Shown here in pieces: positions 18,896-28,870 of a stretch of DNA of 64,000 nucleotides. Within the stretch, counting starts at the first letter, position 1, and every line of letters starts with the position of its first letter. The notes below the pieces were generated by a model. The model saw only the letters and a list, made by a program, of their open reading frames with translations, ran no database searches and was not told where the DNA came from. Made by a program: the position numbers and the translations under genes. The stretch is from Christensenellaceae bacterium. Its GTDB lineage: Bacteria > Bacillota > Clostridia > Christensenellales > Borkfalkiaceae. The DNA is taken from NCBI GenBank assembly GCA_045534605.1, contig JAZSKA010000018.1, forward strand, positions 1,175 to 65,174, written 5' to 3'.

Positions 18896-20212
18896 TTAAA
18901 ATTTTATCGAATAAATTACATACCCTGCCGAAAATATAACTTCACCCGAAAAGAATCTTTCATTTAGATCATCATAATGTTTTTCGCAAAACTCACAAAC
19001 TTCTTTAGCTATTTGTGATTTTGGATTTTCACGAAGCATGCGCGAGAAATCATTAGGAATAAAACTAAACCACGACTCAAAAAGCGCTATTTTATCTTTT
19101 CTTGACATATTTGAAGTATTTATACCATAACGCTCAAGACAAATTTCTTTAGGCTCCATTTTTCTCACATAAGAGTAAACTTGTCTACCCGTATATCTAT
19201 ACCCGCTATAAATATTATGAATATAAAAAGATTGAAATTTAGAAAACAATCCGTCCTTATCCGGATAAACAAAGACTGCGCCATCGTCAACATCACGCAC
19301 AATCATTACAGCATTTTCATTTAAACAGTTTTGAATTGCCTGTAAAATTTTAAACGGCTTTTTAAAATCCATAATTGCCATGCTCAAATAAACGATATCA
19401 ACGCCGTCTACGCCAACTTTTTCAAGACAACTCATAAGTTGTTCTTCAAAATCTTGAGCCTCAAATTTCACTTGGAAAAAATCTATTTCACCATTTTCTG
19501 TATAATTATGTTTATCTGCATTACCTTGTTTTACAATATCTTCGCTATATGTAAGAGCGATAACTCTAGTTATTTGAGGAAATTTTAAGCGCGCATAAGA
19601 ACCTTTCGTGCTTAAAACGTTCACATCGAGACAAACAACGTCTTCTTTTCCTTCTAACAATTTTTCTACGATAGGTTTTTCATATTTAGCAAGAAGTGCA
19701 TCCTCTGTTCTCAACCTATGCTTTTCAGCCTCGTCCTCATCATAGTAATAACGAACATCATCATGTCGGTCGTTTAGATTGGACTTTCTTTCGTCAATTT
19801 TTACACTGCGAAGCATAGAAATAATTTTTTCGACCGTCGCATCAAAATATTCCCTGCTTGACGGAACCCCATTTAAAAGTGGGAGTACCTGTAATGATAC
19901 AGGTAATTTTTCAGGAAAAGAAAATCCCACCATCATAACTGGTATTATGTTCTTTTTTTGTTTTATTGCGTGCTCAATTTCAAGTCTTAGCCAATCGCTT
20001 TCAGATGCGCATCTATCTAACGAGTTTGGTGGCAAAACTAAAACGAAGTTCTCACTTTCGTCAATTGCTTCGTAAAGTTTTTCGTTAAAAGCACCCGATT
20101 GAAGTTCTTCAAGATCTAAAAAGACAGAAAGCCCCGCTTTATTAAAACACTCATATAGAAGTCGTGCCATCGGAAAACCGCCATCTCGTCTATAACTTAT
20201 AAAAATATCCAT
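18896..20212 (-). CDS. TIR-domain protein fused to a degenerate class-I methyltransferase-like domain
   Basis: The N-terminus DIFISYRRDGG...FVLVLPPNS...SDWLRLEIEHA is a bacterial TIR signature with the conserved Glu. The C-terminal half resembles a Rossmann MTase but has VVCLDVNVLSTKGS in place of a GxGxG loop. Confidence 0.75.
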   Translation of the reverse strand: MDIFISYRRDGGFPMARLLYECFNKAGLSVFLDLEELQSGAFNEKLYEAIDESENFVLVLPPNSLDRCASESDWLRLEIEHAIKQKKNIIPVMMVGFSFPEKLPVSLQVLPLLNGVPSSREYFDATVEKIISMLRSVKIDERKSNLNDRHDDVRYYYDEDEAEKHRLRTEDALLAKYEKPIVEKLLEGKEDVVCLDVNVLSTKGSYARLKFPQITRVIALTYSEDIVKQGNADKHNYTENGEIDFFQVKFEAQDFEEQLMSCLEKVGVDGVDIVYLSMAIMDFKKPFKILQAIQNCLNENAVMIVRDVDDGAVFVYPDKDGLFSKFQSFYIHNIYSGYRYTGRQVYSYVRKMEPKEICLERYGINTSNMSRKDKIALFESWFSFIPNDFSRMLRENPKSQIAKEVCEFCEKHYDDLNERFFSGEVIFSAGYVIYSIKF

Positions 20213-20218
20213 AATTAC

Positions 20219-21325
20219 TTATCCTTTATACACCATTTTATAACACGGAACGTCTTTTACCCCAGGGTATTCATACGCTATTTTAAACCCAAGTCTTTGA
20301 TAAAGCCTAACAGATGAGATATTTGCTACTACACACTCAAGCACGCAGTCCTCGTCTTTTTTGAGTAGATAATCGACTAAAGCACCCGCAATTCCACGCT
20401 TGCGATAATTTGAATCCACCGTTACGTTGGCGATATAAAATCCGCCATCGTCTTCTCCCATTTTTTCGTAATACGCTTCAAAAATTTCATGCGTTCGCGA
20501 GTCGCATTTAACCCCCGAAAGACTAAAAGCCGAACGAATATCATCCTCTTTTTCTGTAAAAGGCAACCTCTTTGAAACCATTGCCCCCGCTATAAATCCT
20601 TCGCTAGTTACGGCAACAGTAATATTTTCCTTGTTGTAAAGCGTAGGCAAATTTATCATTTCGCGAATTACTGAAATCCCATCTTCTATATTATCAAACC
20701 AGTACGGATAAATATAAGGATCGGTTAAATAAATTAATTTGGCTACTTGATTTATATCATCTCCGTCTCTAAACTCGCGTATTACGATATCTTTTGACTT
20801 GTTAGGTTGTATTCCTATTTCTCTAGTCATATATTCGTAAAACGAACGATATTCTTCTTTTTCTAACGCTCTCGGAAAAGACAGAATTTTTAATTCAAGA
20901 TCTTCGTCTCCTAGATGATACTTTGCCTGAATATGGTAATACGGATTCATTATAAAACCGTTTCTTTTATAAAAACCGTATCTTCGCTCAGTCATTTCAT
21001 CAATAGGAGGTTCAATTTCTAGCAAAATAATTTTGTTCTTTTTCTTTAACAAATCTAATGCTTTAGCGCCAAACCCCTTACCTCTTACGATTGGCATAGT
21101 TGCAAAATGCTCTAAAAAAACAAAGTCTTTCGTTTCCCAATAAAGCATTATACCAATAAATACACCATCTTTTAGTATAAGGTCAAAATGATATTCCGCC
21201 TTACCCATCACTCTCACTTGTTCTAAATTATCTCGTCTTTCTTCAACTGGAAAAGCCGATTCATATAACTTAAATGCTTGATTAAATAATTGCTCTTCTT
21301 TGCTTGAAAGTCTTTTTAGTTCCAC
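20219..21325 (-). CDS. Tandem GNAT N-acetyltransferase (two GNAT domains)
   Basis: 368 aa with a GTG start after AAGGTGA. There are two acetyl-CoA binding motifs, VRGKGFGAKAL and YRKRGIAGAL. A 6-nt gap separates it from the TIR gene. Confidence 0.8.
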   Translation of the reverse strand: MELKRLSSKEEQLFNQAFKLYESAFPVEERRDNLEQVRVMGKAEYHFDLILKDGVFIGIMLYWETKDFVFLEHFATMPIVRGKGFGAKALDLLKKKNKIILLEIEPPIDEMTERRYGFYKRNGFIMNPYYHIQAKYHLGDEDLELKILSFPRALEKEEYRSFYEYMTREIGIQPNKSKDIVIREFRDGDDINQVAKLIYLTDPYIYPYWFDNIEDGISVIREMINLPTLYNKENITVAVTSEGFIAGAMVSKRLPFTEKEDDIRSAFSLSGVKCDSRTHEIFEAYYEKMGEDDGGFYIANVTVDSNYRKRGIAGALVDYLLKKDEDCVLECVVANISSVRLYQRLGFKIAYEYPGVKDVPCYKMVYKG

Positions 21326-21450: not shown

Positions 21451-21933
21451 TTAGTCGTCGTTTTCGTCTTTGTGGTGGTGATGTCCGCAATTGCAACCTT
21501 CTTCTTTATCGCAGTCGCAATCGTCGTCACAGTCGCAATCGCCATCGCAGTCGCAATCGCCATCGCAGTCGCAGTCTCCATCGCAGTCGCAGTCGCAACT
21601 AGAATGGCAACCGCAGTCACATTCTTCTTCATAGTCGTCTTCTTCGTCCATTTCAGCAACGAACGCTTGGAAAACTTCGTCAAGTAATGCTTCGTCTTGA
21701 ACAGGAGCGAGTTGTTCGTCGCCGTCGTCGCCAACAATTTCGAAAATTACGACTTCTTCGTCGTTAAGACCGTCTATTTCTTGAGCAGGTTGGAAAAATG
21801 CGAACCATCTTTTGTTGTGTTCGATAGTTCCGATATGGTAAAATTTAAACACGTCACCGTTTTCGTTTTTAAGGTCTACAACGGCAATGTCTTCTTCGTT
21901 TTCGTTAATAACTTCTTTGTAATTGTCTGACAT
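21451..21933 (-). CDS. DUF1292 (YrzB-like) protein with Cys/Asp-repeat and His-run C-terminal tail
   Basis: The N-terminal roughly 100 aa match the DUF1292 pattern (VDLKNENGDVFKFYHIGTIEH..RWFAFFQP...VVIFEI). The tail is ECDCGCHSSCDCDCDGDCDCDGDCDCDGDCDCDDDCDCDKEEGCNCGHHHH. Confidence 0.8.
   Translation of the reverse strand: MSDNYKEVINENEEDIAVVDLKNENGDVFKFYHIGTIEHNKRWFAFFQPAQEIDGLNDEEVVIFEIVGDDGDEQLAPVQDEALLDEVFQAFVAEMDEEDDYEEECDCGCHSSCDCDCDGDCDCDGDCDCDGDCDCDDDCDCDKEEGCNCGHHHHKDENDD
21511..21597 (-). repeat. In-frame 18-bp tandem repeat encoding (CDCDGD)n
   Basis: The gcagtcgcaatcgccatc unit is repeated about 4-5 times with minor variants. Confidence 0.8.
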
Positions 21934-21945
21934 AATATATCTCCT

Positions 21946-22362
21946 TTATTTGTTTATTTTTCTCATATAATCTTCTAAAATATAAGACGCGGCGATTTTA
22001 TCGATAACGTCTTTTCTTTTTTCTCTACGCATATCGGCTTCAATCAAAACCCTACGCGCTTCCATAGTGGTAAACCGCTCGTCTTGAAAAACGATAGGAA
22101 TATCCGTGCGCTTTTTAAGTTCTTCAACAAAACTTTCGGTAAGCGCAGTTTGCTCGCTTTTAGAGCCGTCAAAGTTGAGCGGAAGTCCACAAACGATAGT
22201 ATCCGCCCCTTTTTCTTTAGCAAGATTTGCTAGGTAATTAAGGTCTTTTTCAAAATTTTTACGCCAATAAGTTTCAAGCGGTAAAGCCATTGAATTAAAC
22301 GGATCGCTTATAGCCACGCCTATTCTTTTATTGCCGATATCAAACGCGATTATTCTTCCCAT
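21946..22362 (-). CDS. ruvX: Holliday junction resolvase-like RuvX/YqgF
   Basis: 138 aa with IIAFDIGNKRIGVAISD and TIVCGLPLNFDGS. Followed by DUF1292, as is typical in Firmicutes. Confidence 0.92.
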   Translation of the reverse strand: MGRIIAFDIGNKRIGVAISDPFNSMALPLETYWRKNFEKDLNYLANLAKEKGADTIVCGLPLNFDGSKSEQTALTESFVEELKKRTDIPIVFQDERFTTMEARRVLIEADMRREKRKDVIDKIAASYILEDYMRKINK

Positions 22363-22372
22363 AACAATTTAT

Positions 22373-22401
22373 ATTATACATAATTAAACTGGTTTAGTCA
22401 A
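22373..22401 (-). promoter_or_regulatory. Consensus promoter placed 10 nt upstream of the ruvX ATG
   Basis: Minus strand reads TTGACT-17 nt-TATAAT-ataaattgtt-ATG. There is no Shine-Dalgarno sequence. Confidence 0.5.
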
Positions 22402-22402
22402 C

Positions 22403-23821
22403 TTAAATATCAATTAAAAAGCCTTGTAATCTTTCTGGCTTAAAACTATACGGATTCAAGCGCAAAAAGTCGAATGCGTTGGTGGTTAAAAGTTCCGCCC
22501 CGCCTTCGTTTAGAAAACTTCTTGAAGCAATACTGCTGTTTAGATAAAAGACAATTCTTGACGGGATATTTGCCTTTATTACGCCGTTAATAAAAATTGA
22601 TTCGAACCGAGCGGTAGATATAATTAAATGTATTCCGCTTGCGCGCGATTTTTGCAAAAGCGTGCAGAGTTTTTTCTCGAAATCTTTTTTCATCATAACT
22701 TCAAGCGCAGAAAACTCGTCGATAGCATAGACAATGTATTTTAACGGTTTTTCACTATTAATCGCGTTATAGCCCGATATATTACGAACTTTACTTTCAT
22801 TAAACAGCGAATATCTTCTTTCCATTTCGTCAATCAAGTCACCTAAAACTTCCATCGTTTTTTCGGCTGAAGTGATAACGCCTTCACCTTCGAGATATTC
22901 AGATTTATCAAAAGACTTAAACCCACCGAATATACTCGAACAGTAAAACTTTACGATATTATGCGAGTATCTTAGCGAAATGCTTTTAAGTATTCCTTCC
23001 ATAAAACGCAAAAGTTCGCTTCCGATAACGCCACTTATAAGTAAGTGCGGTTCACTCGTTAAATCAGAATAGACGACGTCGCCGTCTACGTTTATTCCAA
23101 CGGGATAAACCAAATTTCCGCTTGGAGCAACTAAATTTTCAAGCGAATTCAAACTTGGCAAAGTCTTTTCGCCGTTTTCTACTTCAAAATTAATTATTCC
23201 CCTATCGAAAGTTACCCTTACGCTAAATACGTTTAAAGCAATTTTGACATCGCTAATAAGTTTTAAAAAACTTGTAGGTTTTCCGTCGCAAACGAACGAA
23301 TATTTCGTATAGCACCCCGTCTTTACTGGGGTTAAAATTTCAGTAACAGTCGTAACCTTTTCGATAACGTTTAAAATTTTAATTTGCTCACCAGTCAGTT
23401 TGCCTTTTGGTGGGAATATTTCGTTTATTCTATAAAATAAAGTTTCTAAATGCGTAAATACGTCGTCGCCAACCGCTTCAATCCATTGTGAAAGTTGCAA
23501 AAAATAATTAAGTTTTATAGGTAAATTAGGCGTAATTTTAAACGGAATAATAGTTTTTTCTGCGCTGAACGCTAAGCTCATCTCTGCCCTTACGTGCACA
23601 GATTTATCGGCGTTTTCAGAAAAAATCAACACCACAAGCGCGCAATTTTTTATCGCGTCTTCAAGTTCGTCAGGATAACTTTCACCACCTAAAACGTCGC
23701 GCGACGAAATAAAGCAGTCGTAACCGCGTTTTTCCAAAAATTCGACGACAGTTTCAGCAGTTGACAAATCTTTTGATGAAAATGATATAAATATATCTTT
23801 GTTTGCGTTTATTTTATCCAT
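22403..23821 (-). CDS. TIR-domain protein fused to an FtsK/SpoIIIE-like motor domain with degenerate Walker A
   Basis: The N-terminus is DIFISFSSKD...LVVLIFSENADKSVHVRAEMSLA. The C-terminal region parallels the FtsK core: PHLLISGVIGSELLRF (in place of GxxGSGKS), Walker B YIVYAIDEFSAL, RASGIHLIISTARFE and IPSRIVFYLNSSIASRSFL. Confidence 0.75.
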   Translation of the reverse strand: MDKINANKDIFISFSSKDLSTAETVVEFLEKRGYDCFISSRDVLGGESYPDELEDAIKNCALVVLIFSENADKSVHVRAEMSLAFSAEKTIIPFKITPNLPIKLNYFLQLSQWIEAVGDDVFTHLETLFYRINEIFPPKGKLTGEQIKILNVIEKVTTVTEILTPVKTGCYTKYSFVCDGKPTSFLKLISDVKIALNVFSVRVTFDRGIINFEVENGEKTLPSLNSLENLVAPSGNLVYPVGINVDGDVVYSDLTSEPHLLISGVIGSELLRFMEGILKSISLRYSHNIVKFYCSSIFGGFKSFDKSEYLEGEGVITSAEKTMEVLGDLIDEMERRYSLFNESKVRNISGYNAINSEKPLKYIVYAIDEFSALEVMMKKDFEKKLCTLLQKSRASGIHLIISTARFESIFINGVIKANIPSRIVFYLNSSIASRSFLNEGGAELLTTNAFDFLRLNPYSFKPERLQGFLIDI

Positions 23822-23977
23822 TTAAAAATTAAAAACCTTTTCAATTTTACTATCGCTATTTTAACATACTGCTAAATAAAAATCAATAGATTTTCAAAAA
23901 TTGAATTTATCGAATAAATTTTACTTTTTTCGACAAACTAATTTTAGGGTTAATAAATAACTCTAAAAGGAGATAAT

Positions 23978-24145
23978 ATGGAAAAAGGACTTTGCTTAGG
24001 TCTTATTATCGGTGCTGTTTTAGGTTGTATGATTTGTGCTAACTCTAAAAAGGTTAGAAAAACCGTATTAGATGCGCAAGAAAAAATCAACGAAAAAATT
24101 CAATGCAAATGTGACGAATTAAAAAACGAAAACAGCGAAGCGTAA
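23978..24145 (+). CDS. Small membrane protein (55 aa, YtxH-like appearance)
   Basis: Below the ORF-track cutoff. AAAGGAGATAAT precedes the ATG. Translation is MEKGLCLGLIIGAVLGCMICANSKKVRKTVLDAQEKINEKIQCKCDELKNENSEA. A terminator follows. Confidence 0.55.
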   Translation: MEKGLCLGLIIGAVLGCMICANSKKVRKTVLDAQEKINEKIQCKCDELKNENSEA

Positions 24146-24173
24146 AAAAACGGCGTTTATGCGCCGTTTTTTT
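24144..24173. terminator. Bidirectional terminator shared by the small ORF and metK
   Basis: Stem aacggcg / cgccgtt between an A-run and a T-run. Confidence 0.75.
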
Positions 24174-25338
24174 AAATGTATTTCTTTAAATCGCTTACTT
24201 TATCAAGTTGTTCCCAAGGGAAGTTATTTCTTCCAAAGTGGCCGTATGACGCGGTTAAACCGTAAATTGGCGAATCGAGATTAAACTTTTCAATGATAGC
24301 ACGCGGTCTAAAATCAAATTCTTTTTCAACGATTTTTGCCAAAGTTTCGTCGTCAAGTTTACCAGTTTTGTGACTATCAACCAAGATAGAAACAGGACGG
24401 GCAACGCCGATAGCGTACGCAACTTCAACCGTACACTCGTCACAAAGCCCTGCACCTACTAAATTTTTAGCAGTGTATCTAGCCATATACGCAGCACTTC
24501 TATCAACCTTCGTTGGGTCTTTACCGCTGAACGCGCCACCGCCGTGCGGAGCGTATCCACCGTAAGTATCTACGATAATTTTTCTTCCCGTCAAACCACT
24601 ATCGCCTTGCGGACCGCCAATTTCAAATCTACCGGTTGGGTTGATAAAGATTTTAGTATCGCTATCCATAAGACTTTTATCGATAGCAACGTCGATAACT
24701 TCTCTTTTGATATCTTTACGAAGTGTTTCAATATCAACTTTGTCAGAGTGTTGAGTAGAAACGACTATCGTATCAACTTTGACGACCTTATTATCTTCGT
24801 ATAAAACGGTAACTTGACCTTTACCGTCAGGGCGAAGATAATCTAAAATACCTTGCTTTCTGACGTATGCAAGTCTTTGCATAAGTTTATGTGATAACAT
24901 GATAGGAAGTGGCATAAGTTCTTCGGTTTGGTTTGACGCATACCCAAACATCATACCTTGATCGCCTGCGCCCGTCTCGTCAAAAACGTCGCCACCAGAC
25001 TTAAATTCTTGCGAATTATCGACACCGAGCGCGATATCTGCACTTTGCGCGTTAAGTCTTATATCAATTTTGCAAGTGTCGTACGAGAAGCCACACGTTG
25101 GATCAGTATACCCTATTTCTTTAATTTTTTCGCGAGCAATTTTTTCAACGTCAACCTTAGCAGTGGTCGTTATTTCACCCATAATCAATAAATAATCTGT
25201 TGTAACGCTACACTCACACGCAACGCGTGCACGCTTATCTTGCGCCAAAATCGCGTCAAGTACCGCGTCTGAAATTTGGTCGCAAACTTTGTCAGGATGT
25301 CCTTCGGTTACGCTTTCGCTCGTAAATAATTTTTTCAA
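24172..25338 (-). CDS. metK: S-adenosylmethionine synthetase
   Basis: [30 protein letters not shown] and [16 protein letters not shown]. Confidence 0.97.
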
Positions 25339-27940: not shown

Positions 27941-28870
27941 ATGAAATATCAAATACTTATTGAAATTTTATTCTTGCTACTGTCAAGAAAGTCCGTTTCG
28001 GCAAAATATATTGCAGAGCGTTTCGACATTTCTCTACGAACTGCGTATAGATATTTACAAGAAATTGAACTTTGCAATATCCCCGTTATCGCAGAACGCG
28101 GTGCAAGCGGTGGTTTTTCTATTGCAGATACGTTTAAACTACCTGCAAGTTTCCTAACCGAAAGCGAATTTTTGAAATTATCATCTGTAATTAACGCAGT
28201 TGGCGAACAGATTGGTGATGCTAGCGAACTTGAACATATAAAAAACAAGTTATATTGCGCATCAAAAACCGAAAAAGAAAGCAATTTATCTTCATCTCAA
28301 CTTATAATTGACGGTAGCGACTGGTCGGTTGGTAGCAGTTATAAAAACAAATTAAGCGTAATAACACGCGCAATTGACAAGCGGGAAATACTTGAAATTT
28401 CATACCACGACAGAGAAGGCGAAGTTTCGACGCGTATTATCGAACCGCACGCGCTTGCCCTAAAACAAGGTTTATGGTATGCGTATGCATACTGCAGACT
28501 TCGCGAAGATTTTAGACTTTTTAAGATTGGTAGAATTGAGTATGCTAAAGTTTGCGGTAAGTTCGAAATGCGCGAATTTGATGCAAATAATCTTCCTTTT
28601 AACGAGTGGTATAACTCAATAAAGCGCGTTGAGTTTGAATTTGAAGTTGAAAAGTCTGTAAAAAGTGAAGTTGAAGAATGGCTTGGAATTGAAAACGTAC
28701 ATGAGTTAAAATCAGGTAAAATTATTGCAAGCGCGCGACTTCCTTACGATAAAGGACTAGTTTATCAGATTATGAGATTTGGTTCTAAAATTAAAGTGGT
28801 TAAACCTGACTACGTTAAGAAAGAAATTTTAAATTCTGCAAAAGAATTAATAAAATTATACCAAAAATAA
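27941..28870 (+). CDS. HTH-WYL domain transcriptional regulator (YafY family)
   Basis: N-terminal wHTH SAKYIAERFDISLRTAYRYLQEI. WYL region ISYHDREGEVSTRIIEPHALALKQGLWYAYAYCRLREDFRLFKIGRI. Confidence 0.85.
   Translation: MKYQILIEILFLLLSRKSVSAKYIAERFDISLRTAYRYLQEIELCNIPVIAERGASGGFSIADTFKLPASFLTESEFLKLSSVINAVGEQIGDASELEHIKNKLYCASKTEKESNLSSSQLIIDGSDWSVGSSYKNKLSVITRAIDKREILEISYHDREGEVSTRIIEPHALALKQGLWYAYAYCRLREDFRLFKIGRIEYAKVCGKFEMREFDANNLPFNEWYNSIKRVEFEFEVEKSVKSEVEEWLGIENVHELKSGKIIASARLPYDKGLVYQIMRFGSKIKVVKPDYVKKEILNSAKELIKLYQK

Follow-up and report, generated by a model that had tools for sequence, protein, structure and literature searches.

TIR-FtsK of a Christensenellaceae bacterium: a TIR domain joined to an FtsK-like motor that has lost its P-loop, a candidate scaffold for TIR activation

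TIR NADases need proximity to build composite active sites; TIR enzymes fire on forced proximity, and the key biology is what forces them together. In Sir2-HerA (Nezha), an NAD+-cleaving effector is combined with an oligomeric scaffold of the FtsK/HerA superfamily whose assembly activates the NADase, Sir2 being switched on allosterically through HerA binding in a 12:6 complex (PMC11514289). TIR-STING is described as turning active upon filament assembly (PMC9402430). Degenerate ATPases are known from EccC/EssC of type VII secretion, where catalysis was lost and the domains have a regulatory or assembly role, and predicted-inactive FtsK domains have already been noted in conflict systems (PMC7159879, Kaur et al. 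2020). In this work, a gene was analyzed that lies on a 64,000-nucleotide stretch of a Christensenellaceae bacterium (contig JAZSKA010000018.1, positions 1,175 to 65,174; hereafter the window) and encodes a TIR domain followed by an FtsK alpha-beta motor without the ATP-binding P-loop. This protein, referred to as TIR-FtsK, is maintained by purifying selection with its motor dead. We proposed, at somewhat below even odds (about 0.45), that the motor may serve as a nucleotide-independent FtsK scaffold gating TIR clustering and NAD+ cleavage.

The protein runs from the TIR domain through a helical linker to the FtsK alpha-beta motor. This arrangement had been suggested by an earlier reading of the DNA letters (the sequence-only reading), all the quoted peptides of which were found in the translation (DIFISFSSKD, KSVHVRAEMSLA with the Glu at residue 80, PHLLISG, VIGSELLRF, YIVYAIDEFSAL, RASGIHLIISTARFE and IPSRIVFYLNSSIASRSFL). 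Pfam, NCBIfam, a phmmer search of PDB sequences, and an AlphaFold2 (AF2) model compared by Foldseek agreed on it, and the C-terminal region proved to be FtsK-like. Homologues are publicly annotated only as 'TIR domain-containing protein'.

The TIR domain scored 70.5 bits with Pfam TIR_2 (cut-off 28), 34.5 bits with Pfam TIR (cut-off 21.3, E 2.3e-8) and 27.8 bits with the CAP12-PCTIR_TIR profile, and the family profile of TIR-FtsK matched TIR-STING 6wt6 (E 3e-12) and SARM1/TIR-1. Its core was modeled with a predicted local distance difference test score (pLDDT) of 90-96. Glu80 was invariant within the immediate family and at least 90% conserved over 14 TIR-FtsK fusions; it aligned to the Glu of WVHKEL in TIR-1/SARM1 (the SARM1 E642 equivalent) and to the catalytic Glu of oyster TIR-STING. 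Judged by these alignments, the domain looks enzymatically competent and is likely NAD-cleaving. The linker that follows was conserved in both the window clade and its sister clade, and was modeled as helices at residues 121-135 and 144-153.

The motor was matched by Pfam FtsK_SpoIIIE (PF01580) over residues 236-406 (E 3.2e-19, 69.7 bits, cut-off 24) and by the NCBIfam FtsK model (E 3.6e-28). The best phmmer matches in the PDB were the FtsK motors 2ius/2iuu (E 2e-27), residues 296-404 of 2ius were aligned to the beta domain (E 1e-17), and the identity to Firmicute FtsK/SpoIIIE motors was 34-38%. The alpha-like domain did not reach the PF17854 threshold. An AF2 model built from a 9-sequence alignment (pLDDT 58) was discarded and replaced by one from a 95-sequence alignment, which had a pLDDT of 89.4 and a predicted template modeling score of 0.77. 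Foldseek placed the latter closest to E. coli FtsK 2IUS (E 8e-28, template modeling (TM) score 0.76, root-mean-square deviation 2.6 Å, 353 columns), followed by the P. aeruginosa FtsK-DNA complexes, TcpA and EccC/EssC, with HerA of Sir2-HerA far behind. Pfam found neither FtsK_4TM nor FtsK_gamma, hence no membrane domain and no gamma domain, and the chain ends about 3 residues past the RLQG motif. TIR-FtsK is a soluble FtsK paralogue with an N-terminal TIR in place of the membrane anchor.

Compared with the FtsK/SpoIIIE motors (E. coli 2IUS, P. aeruginosa 2IUU/6T8B), the alpha-beta fold is the same, whereas the four-transmembrane (4TM) anchor, the long linker and the gamma winged helix-turn-helix that reads FtsK-orienting polar sequences (KOPS) or SpoIIIE recognition sequences (SRS) are all missing, and a TIR domain stands at the N-terminus. 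SftA of B. subtilis is likewise a soluble FtsK-family protein with a non-membrane N-terminal module, present as a second protein beside the canonical FtsK (PMC9320952); by description, however, it is an active translocase without a TIR, whereas TIR-FtsK lacks canonical ATP binding and the gamma domain. The EccC/EssC ATPases matched TIR-FtsK with E 1e-9 to 1e-14. They belong to a membrane multi-ATPase secretion motor, the inactive FtsK 'effector' domains (PMC7159879) belong to STAND-type ternary systems, and none of these has been described with an N-terminal TIR.

The sequence-only reading had also drawn the analogy to Sir2-HerA. The logic is indeed similar, but the motor falls within the chromosomal FtsK/SpoIIIE clade and not within HerA (8woc HerA: E 5e-8, TM 0.38). 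Furthermore, Sir2-HerA is built of two genes and uses a Sir2 NADase, while here a single chain carries a putative TIR NADase, Pfam detected no Sir2 domain in the protein, and the gene lies outside any defence island. Loss of the P-loop is not known from Sir2-HerA.

The motor motifs were compared with the consensus of 81 FtsK sequences, and P. aeruginosa FtsK (PaFtsK) residues were numbered according to PMC7321959. The P-loop Gly-Lys-Ser was lost while Walker B was kept, as the sequence-only reading had stated: both the Lys and the Ser/Thr of GxxGxGK[ST] are missing, G-x-E-L-L standing in place of GSGKS. The AF2 model has the helix behind the P-loop strand beginning already at residue 267, a sign that the phosphate-binding loop may be collapsed. 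For Walker B, the window group has IDEF and P0003 and P0270 have IEEF, FtsK itself reading IDEL. The DPKxVEL motif of FtsK is replaced by SSIFGGF, and the TQRPS sensor region by TARFE, with the sensor Gln gone. The arginine finger, which acts in trans (R620 of PaFtsK), corresponds to R393 within SRASGIH and is a Lys in P0270. PHLL..G and EMERRY are among the further FtsK motifs that were kept. The module is thus predicted to be unable to bind ATP canonically, and since the P-loop is missing, ATP-driven translocation can be regarded as excluded by inference.

Homologues were sought among 5.8 billion proteins. Only three sharers of the architecture were found in the first search (P0001, P0002 and P0003, 93%, 88% and 44% identical, respectively), and a genome scan added locus L009 from a Christensenellaceae metagenome-assembled genome (MAG), cluster P0270, with 37% identity. 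The Walker A Lys was missing in all of them, that is, in the window and three further lineages at 37-93% identity, so that the degeneracy turned out to be conserved in the whole immediate family. The site reads GVVGVEVQ in P0003 and GVVGWETQ in L009, giving a clade consensus of G-V-[IV]-G-x-E-x-x in which Glu269, at the position of the Gly preceding the Lys, is invariant; SSI[FY]GGF and TAR.ES were also fixed across all lineages of the clade. The full-length open reading frame (ORF) was intact across the four lineages, down to 37% identity, and on at least 10 contigs.

The ratio of non-synonymous to synonymous substitution rates (dN/dS) was calculated by the Nei-Gojobori method between the window gene and its L008 orthologue. 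It was 0.13 overall, with the TIR and beta domains each at 0.10. In the same comparison metK gave 0.07, the DUF1292 gene gave 0.08, and ruvX had zero non-synonymous changes. Because of these low ratios and the same substitutions fixed in four lineages, it was concluded that the dead motor is maintained by purifying selection. At greater depth, dN of TIR-FtsK to L001 and L009 was 0.54-0.66 versus 0.13-0.15 for RuvX, a divergence rate about 4 times that of its neighbours; such fast evolution fits a conflict-related gene.

Further fusions were collected by an exhaustive profile search and a second, word-indexed search. The architecture was rare, amounting to roughly 20 clusters in the proteins searched. 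In the other fusions, too, an N-terminal TIR_2 with the catalytic Glu is followed by a soluble FtsK alpha-beta module, but unlike the window protein most of them have an intact Walker A and many have a gamma domain. A sister clade (P0146, P0148, P0155, P0269, L010 and L011; 47-50% identity) shares the distinctive TIR and linker motifs and has kept GSGKR, while TQRP and the loop region were lost. The outer groups (P0134, P0172, P0193, P0206 and P0271-P0274) have the full alpha-beta motor, most of them with gamma and an intact Walker A. In P0273 (626 aa; L038 837-2717), Walker A reads GAVNSGMV and Walker B reads VNEL; the Lys of the former and the Asp of the latter were lost independently, whereas TQRPS and the gamma domain were retained. 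Since the sister clade has lost TQRP and P0273 has independently lost its Walker residues, this recurrent decay suggests that ATP turnover may be dispensable once a TIR is attached. Intact P-loops in homologues had been named beforehand as a sign of local decay in the window gene; distant TIR-FtsK proteins do carry them, but the pattern is that of stable neofunctionalization, not of a pseudogene.

The fusion itself probably arose more than once, because TIRs attached to unrelated C-terminal partners resemble the window TIR more (38-45% identity) than those of the outer TIR-FtsK proteins do (22-36%), and its repetition points to functional synergy. At L036 (3215-10061) and L037 (488-7298), the genes of a canonical 4TM-FtsK (1,388 aa), a DJ-1/PfpI protein and a TIR-FtsK(alpha-beta-gamma) stand in a row. 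The motor of the L036 fusion is 58.6% identical to that of the adjacent canonical FtsK and 45-52% identical to most other FtsKs, which would indicate that ftsK was duplicated locally in tandem and that a TIR then took the place of the N-terminus. Finally, P0142 (862 aa, on a 3.4-kb Logan contig) is a single-chain TIR-FtsZ-FtsK(alpha-beta) with the TIR at 5-115, the FtsZ GTPase and C-terminal domains at 162-460, FtsK alpha at 481-581 and FtsK beta at 589-782. Its Walker A is intact. Read as a 'Rosetta stone' fusion, it links TIR-FtsK to the divisome.

It was proposed that the dead alpha-beta motor would be an ATP-independent oligomerization or sensing scaffold. Its assembly, most simply into an FtsK-like ring, would be triggered by DNA or by a protein partner and would bring the N-terminal TIR domains together. 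NAD+ would then be cleaved, leading to growth arrest or abortive infection, or possibly to a signal. Assembly of this kind has a precedent, as FtsK alpha-beta without nucleotide still forms symmetric hexamers on double-stranded DNA (dsDNA) (PMC7321959). More speculatively, the invariant Glu269 could pair with Arg393 of the neighbouring subunit and so mimic the ATP-bound interface. The partner of the TIR is here a domesticated FtsK chromosome pump, the fold of which was kept by selection while ATP binding was removed in the window clade. Should the dead motor act as an assembly switch, TIR-FtsK would be a clean pseudo-ATPase scaffold of natural origin, a counterpart of Sir2-HerA in one chain and a possible bridge from the division and segregation machinery to NAD+-based control of cell fate.

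Several observations weigh against this proposal. If any dsDNA were a trigger, the chromosome would activate TIR-FtsK constantly; for this reason, a specific trigger or autoinhibition must be assumed. A DNA-sensing role, which the sequence-only reading had allowed for, found no support in the sequence. Of the PaFtsK DNA contacts, loop II R632 (R405 in the window), loop I R661 (R434) and alpha-ring K377 (K181) are kept, and loop II K643 is present as K416 in the window, yet not conserved in P0003 or P0270. S634 of loop II has become an invariant Glu407, loop I K657 is Ser430 and alpha-ring R380 is Ser184. Among the contacts compared, R405 alone is invariant in the window clade, and since the canonical DNA contacts are eroded, DNA-templated assembly appears doubtful.

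The genomic setting and the tempo of evolution count in the same direction. The locus is stable and of housekeeping character, with no defence island around it, and lacks the variable island and patchy distribution usual for defence genes. The sister clade, which occupies a different fixed site by ecfA/ecfT/truA, and the outer groups, located near ftsK/tilS or rpoD/lepA, are also in housekeeping contexts, none of them a defence island. One caveat to this picture is a variable slot 1-3 kb downstream of TIR-FtsK, in which another TIR gene is present in the window only. PADLOC matched no known defence system as a whole, only SspH, mads8 and ThsB at the level of domains. The fast divergence could also reflect relaxed constraint once the motor had died.

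A wider version of the scaffold proposal would treat TIR-FtsK proteins as surveillance effectors of a kind not previously described, each a single chain that arose from the chromosome-segregation motor of the cell itself. The FtsK ring, with or without ATP turnover, would form on a specific DNA state, the divisome or an invader partner and thereby cause TIR clustering and NAD+ cleavage, and in the window clade Glu269 facing the neighbour's arginine finger would allow nucleotide-independent ring closure. This was put forward tentatively and is rather unlikely to hold; if true, it would tie the division and DNA-segregation machinery to TIR-mediated cell-fate decisions in bacteria. Neither 'TIR-FtsK' nor 'FtsK-TIR', nor any description of the architecture, was found in the literature searched. 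The concept is akin to known kinds, namely TIR effectors gated by an oligomerizing module and NADases with FtsK/HerA-superfamily scaffolds, and is not categorically new. The fusions offer a ready set of natural motor states for dissecting which features are needed for TIR activation: some have an active P-loop together with gamma, some have the P-loop but not the sensor motif, some have no P-loop at all, and one has FtsZ embedded. The family is small and known solely from MAGs of uncultured gut Clostridia, and its immediate impact is limited.

The alternative that survives best, though we regarded it as unlikely, is an SftA-like accessory of the divisome or of chromosome segregation, in which the TIR would be an adaptor or localization module replacing the membrane anchor, and the dead motor would regulate or cap the canonical FtsK/SpoIIIE ring or bind its partners. 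Its role would be one of housekeeping or checkpoint control and not of immunity. Such a role would suit a stable, vertically inherited gene among housekeeping genes, the locally duplicated fusion two genes from a canonical ftsK in L036/L037, and the TIR-FtsZ-FtsK chain of P0142; B. subtilis SftA, a soluble FtsK paralogue, is itself recruited to the Z-ring via its N-terminal part (PMC9320952). It accords poorly with a catalytic Glu conserved in nearly all fusions, which is unexpected for a pure adaptor, and with the loss of the gamma domain and most DNA-contact residues. Moreover, a narrow-clade family missing from the nearest outgroups is not a core division function, and the gene evolves several times faster than the core genes beside it. 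If TIR-FtsK is nonetheless a lineage-specific division accessory, it would show a bacterial TIR domain put to use outside immunity.

A poison subunit or decoy was considered improbable. Here, the dead FtsK module would co-assemble with, or mimic, FtsK-like translocases of phages or conjugative elements, stall them and thereby cluster and fire the TIR, which would make it a TIR counterpart to the HerA/FtsK capture systems that have been proposed. FtsK-like translocases do occur in phages and were found on viral contigs and among BFVD entries with 27-35% identity to the window motor, the FtsK-like modules of PADLOC SspH and mads8 matched with E 3e-21 and 7e-14, and the retained R393 could be donated to, or withheld from, a neighbouring subunit; that FtsK/HerA domains might capture the DNA of invaders in defence systems is an idea taken from PMC10853773. 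Still, the motor is nearest to chromosomal Firmicute FtsK/SpoIIIE and not to TcpA, TraB or phage homologues, zero invader-specific features were identified, and mixed rings are pure inference.

A Thoeris-like signal generator, the TIR of which would make a nucleotide second messenger read by an effector encoded elsewhere, with FtsK as the infection sensor, seems improbable too. The TIR resembles ThsB-type TIRs weakly (PADLOC ThsB models E 3e-5 to 8e-3), as it does Thoeris type III ThcB4 (NCBIfam E 3.5e-7), and a second TIR protein is encoded 2.2 kb off. These scores are far under the cut-offs, however (29 vs 220 bits for ThcB4 and 14.1 vs 21.2 for ThsB_TIR), and that second gene, a TIR-methyltransferase, occupies a variable slot from which it is absent in L001 and L002. 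A ThsA-type SLOG, Macro or SIR2 effector was adjacent in no lineage, and beside the window gene, where Thoeris would pair a ThsB-type TIR with a ThsA-type SLOG/Macro-SIR2/transmembrane effector, the neighbours are ruvX, the DUF1292 gene, the small membrane-protein gene and metK.

Lastly, a decaying FtsK-paralogue remnant without a function of its own, to which the lost catalytic motifs and the intact P-loops of more distant homologues might point, is effectively refuted by the selection analysis, and a pseudogene or local decay was rejected, given the dN/dS of 0.10-0.13 that extends to the degenerate domain, the identical substitutions fixed at three motifs in four lineages, the intact full-length ORF and the confident AF2 model.

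The positions of the gene, its parts and its neighbours are listed in Table 1.

Table 1. Location of TIR-FtsK, its domains and motifs, and the adjacent features in the window.
Feature	Position	Strand	Basis
TIR-FtsK(alpha-beta) gene, 472 aa + stop codon, ATG start	22403..23821	-	ORF list, Pfam TIR_2 + FtsK_SpoIIIE
TIR domain, residues 10-118	23468..23794	-	Pfam TIR_2, E 2.3e-19
Codon of Glu80, putative catalytic Glu of TIR (HVRAEMSLAF)	23582..23584	-	Conservation and alignment
Family-specific linker, residues 119-158, helical, conserved HL..LF.R and PPK motifs	23348..23467	-	Alignment, AF2
FtsK alpha-like domain, residues 159-235 (approx.)	23117..23347	-	SpoIIIE/FtsK alignment, Foldseek on 2IUS and 6T8B
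FtsK beta (RecA-like) domain, catalytically degenerate, residues 236-472	22406..23116	-	Pfam FtsK_SpoIIIE, motif table
Degenerate Walker A GVIGSELL, residues 264-271 (GATGSGKS in FtsK)	23009..23032	-	Alignments
Walker B strand IVYAIDEF, residues 363-370, acidic pair kept	22712..22735	-	Alignment
ruvX (YqgF-family nuclease), downstream neighbour	21946..22362	-	Pfam RuvX, E 7e-45
Small single-pass membrane-protein gene, 55 aa, divergent upstream neighbour	23978..24145	+	Translation; conserved in L001, L008, L009
ruvX promoter-like site TTGACT-17-TATAAT, starting 1 nt past the TIR-FtsK stop	22373..22401	-	11/12 consensus matches
Promoter-like site upstream of TIR-FtsK, TTGATT-17-TAAAAT, extended-10 TG	23858..23886	-	9/12 matches, weak

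The gene order of the small membrane-protein gene (divergent), TIR-FtsK, ruvX and the DUF1292 gene was the same in the window, L001, L002-L008 and L009, with metK upstream wherever the contig extends that far. Synteny held at 37-44% TIR-FtsK identity, and the position was fixed in three lineages. In outgroups without TIR-FtsK, the small membrane-protein gene is directly and divergently upstream of ruvX, and in metagenomic outgroups (RuvX 74-75% or 55-60% identical) nothing TIR- or FtsK-like was present within 6 kb upstream of ruvX. Because TIR-FtsK intervenes between these two genes in the window clade only, the gene appears to have been inserted there in the ancestor of a narrow gut clade of Christensenellaceae-like bacteria and, by the same comparison, to have been inherited vertically since, being neither recent nor mobile. 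The independent insertion put forward by the sequence-only reading was therefore upheld as an event, an ancient and fixed one. A phage or mobile-element origin was unsupported: the viral contigs searched gave FtsK-domain matches only and zero TIR-FtsK fusions, and no integrase, tRNA or G+C anomaly was seen near the gene, where flanking repeats were not scanned for. The window contains no canonical ftsK.

The small membrane-protein gene, for the product of which Pfam has no family, is the ancestral left border of the insertion. It was rejected as a specific partner or anchor, as it is also upstream of ruvX in many outgroups without TIR-FtsK. Proteins of this kind, 52-60 aa long and single-pass, are encoded divergently upstream of ruvX in many Clostridia metagenome contigs (e.g., L055 5615-5800 (-)). 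Between the convergent metK and small membrane-protein genes there is a strong, bidirectional terminator-like hairpin of 14 pairs (24143-24174).

The gap between TIR-FtsK and ruvX is 40 nt (22363-22402). That ruvX has a promoter of its own, as claimed earlier, held up, equivalent -35 and -10 boxes being found just ahead of its ATG in L001, L008 and L009. Since no terminator-like site was found by the window scan between the two genes, transcription may also read through from TIR-FtsK into ruvX. Functional coupling to ruvX beyond co-location was unsupported, because the other clades are at other loci and the ruvX promoter is its own and conserved. The -10 box of ruvX ends 6-11 nt ahead of the ATG and no Shine-Dalgarno sequence is present (window 22363-22402; L001 1865-1924; L009 9402-9450), which suggests that the ruvX mRNA may be leaderless in the window clade; in the outgroup L055, GGAG is upstream of ruvX.

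The second TIR protein of the window (438 aa, 18896-20212 (-)) combines TIR_2 with a C-terminal half resembling S-adenosylmethionine-dependent methyltransferases (Methyltransf_31 at the cut-off), and its gene adjoins that of a double-GNAT protein (20219-21325 (-)). Both genes fill the variable slot between the DUF1292 gene and a potD-like binding-protein gene, which holds an HTH_3 and Zn-ribbon gene in L002-L007 and is empty in L001; possibly the slot represents a little defence islet of variable content. The two TIR proteins of the window are unlikely to be linked, as their TIRs are only 28% identical and the second gene is missing from the slot in relatives.

The DUF1292 protein (21451-21933 (-)) has an unusual Cys/Asp-rich terminal run, CDCDGDCDCDGD..., followed by HHHH, and the tail looks like a metal-binding one; because of the repeat, both strands show spurious ORFs that overlap. 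An HTH_11-WYL-WCX regulator gene (27941-28870 (+)), some 4 kb away from TIR-FtsK, is conserved in L002-L007. WYL regulators are frequent controllers of defence or DNA-damage genes. Elsewhere, TIR genes were seen in tandem in a Bacteroidota MAG (L023 1-7295, four genes of about 600 aa each) and in pairs in one Methanobrevibacter and one Oscillospiraceae MAG (L013 7998-9772 and L020 2423-4111).

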